From positions 1 through 6,042 of IMG/VR virus record IMGVR_UViG_2537562194_000018: a stretch of 6,042 nt of DNA. One strand, written 5' to 3'. Source of the stretch: a virus (Duplodnaviria > Heunggongvirae > Uroviricota > Caudoviricetes). Positions 3,001 to 6,000 of this stretch are shown here, piece by piece (the first letter of the stretch is position 1; the number at the start of each line of letters is the position of its first letter). The position numbers are program-made.

Positions 3001-6000
3001 CAGTCAGAGGAGGCGTCCTCGTCCTCGGCTTCTGCGGCCGCTCAAAAAGCCAGTGAGTCATCACAAAGTGCAGCAGAAGCTGAATTGTCAAGAAAGACGG
3101 CAGAAAGTGCAGCCGGTAATGCAGCCAGGGATGCAACGACCGCAACAGAAAAAGCCCGGGAGTCAGCAGAAAGCGCACAGTCAGCGGAACAAAGCAGGAT
3201 AGCGGCGGAAGAGGCCGTAAACCGAATCCCCACCGTGGTGGGACCTCCCGGGCCAAAGGGGGAACAGGGGCCCGCGGGTCCTCAGGGGCCGAAGGGTGAT
3301 AAGGGAGAGCGCGGTGACACCGGCCCTGTCGGGGCAACCGGCGAACGGGGACCGGCAGGTGATGCTGGTCCGGCAGTCCCGCAGGGGCCGAAAGGTGACA
3401 GGGGAGAGCGGGGAGAGACCGGTCTGACGGGAAATGCAGGTCCTCAGGGTCCAAAGGGAGATACCGGTGCGGCAGGCCCGGCAGGCCCACAGGGACCGAA
3501 AGGAGAAACAGGTGCGGCTGGCCCGGTGGGGGCAACCGGACCTCAGGGGCCGAAGGGCGACCCGGGGGAGACGCAAATACGGTTCCGTCTGGGGCCGGGA
3601 AACATTATTGAGACAAACAGCAATGGCTGGTTCCCGGATACAGATGGTGCGCTCATCACCGAACTGACCTTTCTTGACCCCAAAGATGCCACACAGGTTC
3701 AGGGGCTGTTTCGGCATTTGCAGGTCAGGTTTGGTGACGGGCCGTGGCAGGATGTTAAGGGGCTGAATGAAGTGGGCAGTGATACAGGCAGAACAGGAGA
3801 ATGACATGAATATACTAAAAAACTTATGCAGCGTCTGTGTGGTTGCGGAAAGCATGATGGCCGTGAACACGTGCAGTCGCTTACAGCACAACTGCGACTG
3901 GGGCCGGCAGACATCCTGGAGTCAGATGAGAATGGCATTATCCCGGAGCAGGACAGGGTAATCACGCAGGTGGTGATACTGGATGCGGATAAAAAGCAGA
4001 TACAGTGCGTGGTAAGACCGCTGCAAATCCTGCGTGCTGACGGGACGTGGGAAAATATTGGCGGGATGAAGTAACCCGACAGCTTCACAAAACCGGAGTC
4101 CGGCTCCGGTTTTTGTGTTGCAATGTCCGGGGGATATTTGTTAAGTAGATGATAGAGGAGCTAATTCAACAGGGAGATAAATTAATGCCGATAAATCTGA
4201 CATCTTATTTGGGGTTACAGGGGGCGAAAGTTGTCCCGGCAGTTGTTTTTTCTAAAATTTAGTCTTGTTGGGGTAAATGACATATGCCATTGATAACATC
4301 CAGCATTTCATCAAATGTTGCTTTGCAGAGTATTGAAATATTACGTGAAGCTGCCAGACAAAACCTGATAACGAAAGATATTACTATAAATGGGCAGAAA
4401 GTTGGTATTCATTATTATCAACGCCCTGACGTTTTTTTAGTTTCTGGTTGTAAGCTAGTGAATTGGTGGCACTGAAATATATAAAACCATATTAAGTATC
4501 AATATGAAAATTCCCGTTCTCCAACCTGGCTTCAACTTTTTTGCCCCTGCTGGATACTCTGCTGCCGTTGCTCCTAATCGTGCTGAAAATGCCTATGCGG
4601 ATTACGTTTTGGATATAGGTAAGCGAATACCGCTTTCCGCAGCAGATTTAAGCAACGTATACGAAAGTGTAATTCGCGCCGTCCATGACAGCCGTAGCAG
4701 GCTCATCGATCAGCATACGGTCGATATGATTGGCAACACTGTACTTGATGCGTTGAGCCGATCACAAACATTTCGTGATGCCGTAAGCTATGGCATTCAT
4801 AATGAGGAGGTACACATTGGTTGCATTAAATACAGAAACGAATACGAGCTTAACGGAGAATCTGCTATCAAAATTGATGATATTCAATCACTAACCTGTA
4901 ACGAATTATATGGATACGATGTCGGGCAAGAACCAATTCTCCCCATTTGCGAGGCAGGAGAAAACGAGAACGAAGAGCCTTATGTCAGTTTTAGTGTTGC
5001 GCCAGATACTGATTCTTATGAGATGCCATCGTGGCAGGAAGGACTGATTCACGAGATTATTCATCATGTTACTGGGGCCAGCGATCCATCTGGAGATAGT
5101 AATATAGAGCTAGGACCCACCGAGATTCTCGCACGTCGTGTCGCTCAAGAGCTGGGATGGAGTGTTCCCGACTTCAAAGGATATGCAGAGCCAGAACGAG
5201 AAGCTCATCTTAGACTACGTAACCTGAATGCCCTTCGACAGGCTGCCATGAGGCATGAAAAGAATGAGAGGGCTTTCTTCGAAAGACTGGGTACGATCAG
5301 TGACCGATATGAGGCGAGTCCTGATTTCACAGAGTATTCCGCTGTGTCAAACTGAACCGCCCCGGAAATCCTGGAGACTAAACTCCCTGAGAAAGAGGTA
5401 AACAGGATGACTAAAAATACTCGTTTTTCCCCCGAAGTCCGTCAGCGGGCGATTCGTATGGTTCTGGAAAGTCAGGATGAATATGACTCACAGTGGGCGG
5501 CAATTTGTTCCATTGCCCCAAAGATTGGCTGTACGCCGGAGACTCTGCGTGTCTGGGTTCGCCAGCATGAGCGGGATACCGGGGGCGGTGATGGTGGGCT
5601 CACCAGCGCTGAACGTCAGCGTCTGAAAGAGCTGGAACGTGAAAATCGTGAACTGCGCCGCAGTAACGATATCCTTCGCCAGGCTTCCGCTTATTTTGCG
5701 AAGGCGGAGTTCGACCGCCTCTGGAAAAATGATGCCACTGCTGGATAAGCTGCGTGAGCAGTACGGGGTCGACCGGTATGCAGCGAACTGCATATTGCCC
5801 CGTCAACGTATTACCATTGTCAGCAACAGCGACATCATCCGGATAAACGCAGTGCCCGTGCGCAGCACGACGACTGGCTGAAGAGAGAGATACAGCGCGT
5901 ATACGATGAAAATCATCAGGTGTACGGTGTGCGTAAAGTCTGGCGTCAGTTGTTACGGGAAGGAATCAGGGTGGCCAGATGTACAGTGGCACGTCTCATG

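Follow-up and report, generated by a model that had tools for sequence, protein, structure and literature searches.

Two single-base losses in an IS1203 copy of Escherichia coli O111:H- JB1-95 are probably errors of the draft consensus

Introduction

IS1203 is an isoform of IS629 and is also referred to as 'IS629 subtype I' (PMC3271280). It was first described in the E. coli O111:H- strain PH by Paton and Paton in 1994 (via PMC3271280, PMC6602927). The IS629 of Shigella represents subtype II (Rump et al. 2011, PMC3271280), and the subtypes diverge by 4-5% (PMC3271280). For IS3-family elements, U_UU.U/C tetramers are a recognised motif class (PMC4066793). IS3411, IS629 and IS1203 are not mentioned in the supplements of Sharma et al. 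2014, and a review of IEE and IS629 confines itself to the generic frameshift model of the IS3 family. The slippery site was therefore set here by comparison and not by citation. The primary paper on the ALIL pseudoknot of IS3411 is reportedly that of Mazauric et al. 2008 (JBC). The IS3411-type ALIL -1 frameshift signal is summarised in PMC5009743.

Results

Source of the contig and insertion into nleC

The window, that is the whole stretch of 6,042 nt analysed here, is a complete draft contig (AEZV02000089.1, 6,042 bp, assembly GCA_000194355.2). AEZV denotes E. coli O111:H- JB1-95, sequenced by JCVI (PMC3359367); the draft is a 2011 JCVI assembly. Among 5,426 complete genomes, the whole window including the nleC::IS junction was found only in 95NR1 and 95JB1, two finished genomes of the 1995 Adelaide O111:H- outbreak clone. 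Judged by name, serotype and the unique junction in common, JB1-95 is presumably the same isolate as 95JB1. Both finished genomes are PacBio assemblies that were Illumina-polished specifically for homopolymer indels (PMC6602927). The insertion site comprises the following features.

4504-5352, + strand: nleC, T3SS effector zinc metalloprotease (ORF list; RefSeq annotation; Pfam Peptidase_M85)
5350-5352, + strand: left 3-bp target-site duplication AAC (AAC occurs at both ends of the 1310-bp element in 95JB1)
5353-5377, + strand: left terminal inverted repeat of IS1203, TGAACCGCCCCGGAAATCCTGGAGA (by comparison with the reverse-complemented right end in 95JB1)

The element interrupts nleC, which is carried by a prophage, after codon 283 of 328, and its first three bases (5353-5355) form the TGA stop of the truncated gene. 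Homology with complete genomes lacking the element stops at 5352. The left inverted repeat begins with TG at 5353, while the right end of the element lies beyond the window; in 95JB1, the inverted repeats agree at 22 of the first 25 positions and the final base is T, not A. The gene is annotated as a partial pseudogene in 95NR1 and 95JB1; the annotation of strain 8B has it intact, with 987 nt. No NCBIfam family was assigned to the truncated NleC, and its identity is therefore based on the RefSeq annotation together with Pfam M85.

The element is an ordinary IS1203

The first 690 nt of the element (5353-6042) were aligned globally with intact IS1203 copies from O157:H7 PV15-279, 95NR1 and 95JB1. 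The alignment contained two 1-nt losses and no substitutions, and 688 of 688 aligned bases were identical to copies annotated as 'IS3-like element IS1203 family transposase'. The left inverted repeat, orfA and the ALIL region are all shared with IS1203, and the host belongs to the O111:H- lineage. The window copy differs from IS1203 only by a missing A (5725-5729) and a missing G (5771), both of which are present at the insertion in the finished genomes. With the Shigella IS629, IS1203 has in common the family, the length class and the organisation, as well as the U_UUU site, the A6 run and the ALIL of the S. flexneri copy, but the nucleotide identity over the first 690 nt is only about 95% (28 mismatches to the S. 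flexneri copy), in agreement with the published divergence of the subtypes, and the OrfA proteins are distinguished by I16V, D24G, A32T and S67T. These four substitutions relative to Shigella-type IS629 gave the impression of a diverged isoform in the initial annotation. This did not hold, as the element is the common IS1203 isoform and, gaps aside, identical to copies in many genomes. It is an ordinary IS1203, i.e. IS629 subtype I of the IS3 family. The OrfAB of intact identical copies scored 370.7 bits on NCBIfam NF033516 (cutoff 160), and the OrfA and OrfB fragments of the window cover positions 1-87 and 104-187 of this model. Full copies have recorded Pfam matches to HTH_Tnp_1, HTH_21 and rve.

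Probable slippery site and ALIL pseudoknot

Two features define the frameshift region upstream of the losses and around them.

5694-5697, + strand: U_UUU tetramer, conserved and probably the -1 slippery site, intact in the window (comparison of 24 relatives)
5688-5802, + strand: ALIL pseudoknot region, predicted to stimulate frameshifting, Rfam RF01497 (cmscan)

The slippery site was compared in 24 relatives with OrfAB identities of 49-100%. U_UUY was present at ALIL columns 7-10 in the orfA register in all 24, with T7-T9 invariant and T or C in column 10, and the -1 frame is open from upstream across the motif. In the window, the orfA codon UUU occupies 5695-5697 with a U before it, and the motif lies 5 nt upstream of ALIL stem 1. 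The fusion recorded as 'MULTISPECIES: IS3-like element IS1203 family transposase' corresponds to a shift at U_UUU; the NCBI protein records contain both fusion versions. The A-run, which the initial annotation had regarded as the programmed slippery site, corresponds to ALIL columns 38-43 and is not conserved among the relatives, so that this assignment had to be given up in favour of U_UUY. A role of the run as a second slip site (A_AAA) was likewise rejected, since distant relatives with a complete ALIL architecture lack it and since stem-loop 2 begins about 35 nt downstream of it.

By comparison of these sequences, the intact element probably frameshifts at U_UUU. Its orfA would be translated as far as U_UUU at 5694-5697, where a fraction of the ribosomes would slip by -1 under stimulation by the ALIL pseudoknot; the slipped ribosomes would then read on in the orfB frame and yield OrfAB (404 aa).

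The ALIL region measures 115 nt in the window and 117 nt in intact copies, and cmscan gave 109.2 bits against 121.5 bits for an intact copy (gathering score 50), with both gaps visible in the alignment. It is composed as follows.

5703-5719, + strand: ALIL stem-loop 1, GGCGG AGUUCGA CCGCC (Rfam structure line)
5725-5729, + strand: A5, where intact copies have A6; site of the first loss, within the spacer that joins stem 1 to stem-loop 2 (alignment)
5764-5802, + strand: ALIL stem-loop 2, both helices kept (Rfam structure line; pairing counts)
5769-5773, + strand: internal loop of stem-loop 2, UCGAC (UCGGAC in intact copies), site of the second loss (alignment)

Bases 5709-5714 of the apical loop pair with the internal loop of stem-loop 2. 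The helix 16-20/28-32 was paired in 98.3% and the loop-loop helix in 93.8%, and pair 23/87 occurred as CG in 12 cases and as UA in 11; the pairing between apical loop and internal loop is backed by covariation. As in IS3411-type ALIL, stem 1 is located close 3' of the shift site with stem-loop 2 45 nt further, and the apical loop pairs with the internal loop; in contrast to it, the internal loop of the window has 5 nt instead of 6 and the spacer is 1 nt shorter. A deletion in a helix of stem-loop 2 was considered and rejected, as the folds of both hairpins match those of the intact copy (-19.3 kcal/mol for stem-loop 2 in the window, -18.9 without the losses) and the internal loop alone is smaller. 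The six-base loop-loop helix, intact in 95JB1 and 95NR1, is not complete in the window, where one G of pair positions 85/86 is gone and five pairs with a bulged U are left.

The two losses and the reading frames as written

The first loss removes one A from the A6 run, 11 codons past the slippery site in the orfB frame, and is a plain frameshift. The second removes one G (TCGGACC to TCGACC, with a single G remaining at 5771); being situated in the internal loop, it both costs the loop-loop pair and shifts the frame again. This is no chance pattern: the reference is identical at every other position, and the two indels are a specific departure from it. The reading frames of the window are listed below.

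5407-5748, + strand: orfA, 113 aa (ORF list; partial match to NCBIfam NF033516; Pfam HTH_Tnp_1)
5730-5732, + strand: TGA, the orfA stop in intact copies, here in the -1 frame
5732-5881, + strand: ORF of 49 aa, the OrfB N-terminus followed by out-of-frame sequence (ORF list)
5758-6042, + strand: OrfB body, without a stop up to the contig end (homologous from about 5774 on, CSELHIAPSTYYH; NF033516 positions 104-187)

OrfA of intact copies has 108 aa and ends in ...LWKK; it is five residues longer in the window because of the missing A. The frameshift product of the window copy, also of 108 aa, would be terminated by the TGA at 5730-5732. The 49-aa ORF exists because of the G loss, and an exact-sequence look-up found its product only on this contig. 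In 95JB1 and 95NR1 as well as in all 24 relatives, orfB overlaps orfA and is read in the -1 frame with respect to it. This is not so in the window, where the N-terminus of OrfB lies in the +1 frame, the body in frame 0, and the -1 frame stops at 5730. Both losses together put the OrfB body into the orfA frame, which the initial annotation did not mention; between orfA and the body lie two stops, TAA (5746-5748) and TGA (5755-5757). The catalytic rve/DDE part of OrfB is located beyond the contig end.

The description of the sequence in the initial annotation was thus accurate. The global alignment over 690 nt confirms that, compared with intact members of the family, two single bases are deleted, and the A5 run can be seen at 5725-5729. 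The ORF list agrees with a 113-aa orfA product in place of one ending in ...WKK, and the TGA at 5730-5732 is met in the -1 frame as had been described. The +1 position of the OrfB N-terminus and the second frame jump, with homology resuming as CSELHIAPSTYYH from about 5774, were also found again. As the frames stand, no full OrfAB transposase can be made, and the claim that the copy as written would depend on transposase in trans is supported.

Origin of the two losses

At the nleC::IS1203 insertion of both 95JB1 and 95NR1, A6 and GG are present, and the CDS is annotated as an intact transposase with a 'programmed frameshift'. The contig itself contains four single-base indels in 6 kb (+T at 2791, A7 to A6 at 3816, A6 to A5 at 5725-5729 and GG to G at 5771), each of which breaks an ORF that is intact elsewhere; two of them affect tail-fibre genes. 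All 13 differences of the window lie in tail-fibre or IS sequence, and a separate Illumina draft of 95NR1 sides with the finished genomes and against the window over 3574-5663. The additional T at 2791 is not an error of the homopolymer type. Since neither base is missing from this insertion in the finished genomes of the outbreak strain, the damage is most likely an assembly artefact. The two 1-nt losses are most probably consensus errors of the JCVI draft and not mutations of the bacterium, and the initial claim of a disabled transposase is essentially contradicted by the A6 and the extra G of 95JB1 and 95NR1.

It is unlikely that both deletions are real in the JB1-95 stock and mark a recently decayed, non-autonomous IS1203 copy. 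Such a copy would produce a 113-aa OrfA with an altered C-terminus and the 108-aa frameshift product, but no transposase; its ends would be kept, and it could move only with OrfAB supplied by other copies. The deposited sequence does read this way, decay is common in IS copies, laboratory stocks of a single isolate can diverge, and A5 copies occur as inherited pseudogenes in other lineages. In principle, short-read polishing of a multi-copy IS could also overwrite a genuine variant copy with the family consensus. However, the locus is intact in the finished genomes of the same clone, and with only 'a handful of SNPs' separating outbreak isolates genome-wide (PMC6602927), a count of four ORF-breaking indels within 6 kb is much too high. 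Furthermore, the G loss was found nowhere else: a 40-mer across it matched none of the 5,426 complete E. coli genomes, which together hold at least 25,183 IS places, and an exact scan of viral contigs gave no match to the double-loss pattern.

The contraction of A6 to A5 was detected at 70 places in 64 of the 5,426 complete genomes. Some of the assemblies contain several IS copies with A5 plus recurring deletions (A at IS position 684, AG at 532-533), and A5 elsewhere is evidently in part an assembly artefact. A dead A5 copy adjoining kwaB was found in strains 53, DETEC-C31 and 368_BP0078 from Switzerland, China and Cambodia; with one locus in three countries and separate assemblies, these copies are real. 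They share with the window the A5 run and the 113-aa OrfA, and inherited copies of this kind are labelled 'frameshifted' by NCBI. They differ from it in keeping GG, whereas the window copy is contradicted by the finished genomes of its own clone. It is very unlikely that both losses are real and that contraction of A6, just past the slippery site, is a recurrent, possibly reversible off-switch for individual IS1203/IS629 copies, followed here by a second hit in the ALIL loop. In that case, it would be a coincidence that the second hit places the catalytic body in frame with orfA.

A chimeric consensus, in which one or both deletions are real in another IS1203 copy whose reads were merged into the junction contig end, is highly improbable. 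The contig ends 690 nt into a repeat with 37 matching places on each finished chromosome, and of six clustered substitutions at 3860-3891, five match the allele of another O111 prophage (11128), which suggests that paralogous reads were mixed. Nevertheless, no copy with the G loss occurs in finished 95JB1 or 95NR1, and of the 66 records with A5, the 65 that were listed include neither genome; on this ground, borrowing of A5 from another copy in the same genome was rejected. That every IS1203 copy of 95JB1 has A6 and GG is thus close to being established. A functional arrangement, with transposase made through transcriptional slippage restoring A6 or through stop read-through, has next to no likelihood, because, although the OrfB body lies in the orfA frame after both losses, three frame changes or two read-throughs (TAA 5746, TGA 5755) would be needed, the arrangement is conserved nowhere, and the polymerase would not slip efficiently on a run as short as A5.

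Discussion

With consensus errors as the most probable origin of the losses, the locus gives reason for caution: frameshifted "pseudogenes" that lie where a draft contig ends in a repeat should not be taken as biology. In the present case, the question is decided by the finished genomes of the clone itself. If the losses were true, the copy would be a routine decayed, trans-dependent dead IS among about 37 element-matching places on the chromosome. For the IS629/IS1203/IS3411 group, the comparison of relatives points to U_UUY before ALIL stem 1 as the programmed -1 site, and not to the A6 at the orfA stop. The nleC gene truncated by IS1203 is a trait of the Adelaide O111:H- outbreak clone.

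Source and setting of the IS1203 copy

An exact match of the truncated NleC protein led to contig AEZV02000089.1 (6,042 bp, assembly GCA_000194355.2), which is identical to the window in its DNA and fully covered by it. AEZV is E. coli O111:H- strain JB1-95 from the J. Craig Venter Institute (PMC3359367). Among 5,426 complete E. coli genomes, a whole-window match including the nleC::IS1203 junction was found only in 95NR1 and 95JB1, the O111:H- pair from the 1995 Adelaide HUS outbreak (PMC6602927); the junction itself was likewise confined to them. The name, the serotype and the shared junction make it very likely that JB1-95 and 95JB1 are one isolate.

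The ORF list and the annotation of matching genomes show the window to contain a lambdoid prophage's right end, including the C-terminus of gpJ, lom, tail-fibre genes and nleC (4504-5355), which encodes a T3SS effector. The following element cuts nleC and leaves the first 283 of its 328 codons:

5353-6042 (window end): IS1203 copy, starting with the inverted repeat TGAACCGCCCCGG

The truncated NleC retains its HEIIH metalloprotease motif and lacks the C-terminal 45 residues. The paper on 95NR1 and 95JB1 does not mention nleC (PMC6602927). The same nleC breakpoint ends two short contigs, L021 (GCA_053199845.1) and L022 (Logan SRR14865459), both with differing tail-fibre sequence. Base 5349, which directly precedes the left AAC target repeat, reads A in the Adelaide clone and T in empty sites and in these two contigs. 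The last IS base in 95JB1 (locus L007, position 8162) is T (...GGTTCT), the usual base being A; the two bases look as if swapped in the Adelaide clone.

The two losses as written

The initial annotation had described a disabled, diverged IS629-like element; its sequence observations were confirmed and its interpretation was supported in part. The run at 5725-5729 is indeed A5, orfA (5407-5748) ends in ...WKNDATAG after 113 aa, the -1 frame stops at TGA 5730-5732, the OrfB N-terminus lies in the +1 frame relative to orfA and the frame jumps a second time near 5770. Global alignment of the 690 nt with intact copies from O157:H7 PV15-279, 95NR1 and 95JB1 gave exactly two differences, the window lacking one A of an A6 run and one G of TCGGACC, with no substitutions, in agreement with the two deletions proposed. 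Once both bases are lost, the OrfB body, open from 5758 onwards up to where the contig stops, shares the orfA frame, with TAA (5746) and TGA (5755) in between.

The 690-nt IS query had at least 25,183 matches in 3,804 of the 5,426 complete genomes, annotated as 'IS3-like element IS1203 family transposase' with an 'AL1L pseudoknot' feature. The best were 99.9% and 99.7% identical and none reached 100%; copies at least 99% identical were present in 1,243 records. Apart from the two gaps, the element equals intact IS1203 copies in several genomes. It differs from Shigella-type IS629 by four OrfA residues (I16V, D24G, A32T, S67T) and about 5% of nucleotides. These features are already known to separate IS629 subtype I (IS1203, originally from O111:H-) from subtype II (PMC3271280), and the copy is therefore an ordinary IS1203 and not a diverged isoform.

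Location of the programmed frameshift

The frameshift-stimulating pseudoknot ALIL (Rfam RF01497) matched at 5688-5802 with 109.2 bits, compared to 121.5 bits for an intact copy. The model places its stem-loops as follows:

5703-5719: stem-loop 1, upstream of the A-run
5764-5802: stem-loop 2, 45 nt beyond stem-loop 1

In the IS3411-type signal the first stem follows shortly 3' of the shift site (PMC5009743), which puts the shift site here upstream of 5703. ALIL regions were compared in 24 relatives with 49-100% OrfAB identity, ranging from Enterobacterales to Comamonas, Acidithiobacillus, Sphingobium and a Chloroflexi MAG. Alignment columns 7-9 were always T and column 10 was T or C, giving U_UUY in the orfA register in all 24, extended to U_UUU_UUY in several. 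The -1 frame opened upstream of this motif in every relative and stayed open for about 890-950 nt in 20; it was cut short in three copies and one locus ended first. The orfA stop lay at column 41 or 44. The A-run (columns 38-43), which had been taken for the slippery site, is replaced in distant relatives, for example by GAAGTGATGG or CAAGAGTTAA, and this assignment was abandoned. U_UU.U/C tetramers are a recognised motif class in IS3-family elements (PMC4066793). On comparative grounds, the programmed -1 site is assigned to the U_UUU upstream of ALIL stem 1. NCBI holds two OrfAB fusions for the same IS1203 DNA (P0001 and P0002), one joined at the A-run (...LWKK/MMPLL, EEU/EEW accessions, 158 contigs) and one at U_UUU (...AYF/CEGG..., 'MULTISPECIES: IS3-like element IS1203 family transposase', 394 contigs); the annotation of this element thus varies.

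Two unrelated Rfam hits flank IS copies of relatives: a sok antitoxin RNA adjoins the IS in Enterobacter asburiae (L033, 1941-2108) and a 5S rRNA gene lies just upstream of it in Brenneria rubrifaciens (L062, 12-127).

Assembly error or decay

The nleC element of both 95NR1 and 95JB1 has A6 and GG and its CDS is annotated 'programmed frameshift'. Both are finished PacBio assemblies from which homopolymer indels were removed by Illumina polishing, with 30 and 42 corrections (PMC6602927). The window differs from them at 13 positions, all in tail-fibre or IS sequence.

Single-base indels of the window (n = 4), each disrupting an ORF intact in the finished genomes
Position; change; sequence affected
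2791; +T (CCGGAGG to CCGGTAGG); tail-fibre gene, split into 108-aa and 329-aa ORFs
3816; A7 to A6; start of the tail-fibre C-terminal gene
5725-5729; A6 to A5; IS1203
5771; GG to G; IS1203

The indels at 2791 and 3816 set the window apart from all related genomes, both genes being intact in 95NR1, 95JB1, 8B and 11128, and the inserted T is not a homopolymer-type error. The other nine differences are substitutions within the tail-fibre region 2836-3891. An independent Illumina draft of 95NR1 (L020, AVDU01000021.1; covering 3574-5663) sides with the finished genomes against the window. The contig terminates inside a repeat that matches at 37 places on each finished chromosome, and the outbreak isolates are reportedly only 'a handful of SNPs' apart genome-wide (PMC6602927). 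Given this and their confinement to tail-fibre or IS sequence, 13 differences in 6 kb look like consensus error and not evolution.

Both losses were also searched with 40-mers, each 28-nt megablast word being forced across the changed site. The A5 version occurred at 70 places in 64 genomes; neither 95JB1 nor 95NR1 was among the 65 A5-bearing records listed, out of 66. In some assemblies, A5 was accompanied by recurring one- or two-base deletions (A at IS position 684, AG at 532-533) across several IS copies per genome, which we read as the signature of systematic assembly error. This combination was seen at GenBank loci L009, L012, L015, L016 and L017, and two VXJR01000001.1 copies were identically changed. 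Elsewhere the change is genuine and inherited: strains from Switzerland, China and Cambodia share a frameshifted IS1203 copy with A5 at one chromosomal locus, directly downstream of kwaA/kwaB, the Kiwa defence genes. This copy lies at about 4.22 Mb in strains 53, DETEC-C31 and 368_BP0078 (L104, L105, L106) and also at L008 and L013. As A5 arises both ways, it is not decisive by itself. The G-loss version had no match in the 5,426 complete genomes, the 49-aa ORF that it creates was recorded for this contig only, among 153 billion gene positions, and the double-loss pattern was not found in viral contigs.

Three observations are decisive in combination: the same clone has the element intact, the G loss is unique, and the contig carries two further indels. 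On these grounds, both losses are most likely draft-assembly artefacts in an otherwise ordinary IS1203. Genuine recent decay of this copy in the JB1-95 stock would have an inherited A5 as precedent, and where an IS is present many times, correction with Illumina short reads could in principle overwrite a variant copy; set against the same three observations, such decay is unlikely. Of the six substitutions clustered at 3860-3891, five give the allele that O111:H- 11128 has in its orthologous prophage, which suggests either gene conversion over this tract or a consensus that blends paralogous prophage copies. A chimeric consensus is very improbable as the source of the two losses. Functional alternative decoding can practically be dismissed, as no plausible route to full-length OrfAB exists in the sequence as written.

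Consequences for the transposase if the losses are real

Neither the slippery site nor either hairpin is damaged in the window. If real, the A loss would act as a plain frameshift, 11 codons into the -1 frame: ribosomes slipping at U_UUU would end at TGA 5730 with a 108-aa product, and non-slipping ribosomes would yield the 113-aa OrfA. The G loss takes one of two Gs from the internal loop UCGGAC, whose pairing with GUUCGA, the apical loop of stem 1, makes up a loop-loop helix of six pairs. This helix is 93.8% paired across relatives and its pair 23/87 covaries (CG:12, UA:11). Five pairs and a bulge are left after the loss, together with the second frame shift. The claim that no OrfAB fusion can be made and that the copy depends on complementation in trans thus holds for the sequence as written; its left end is intact, which would leave it open to mobilisation in trans. 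Under every reading considered, the element is of a well-known kind.
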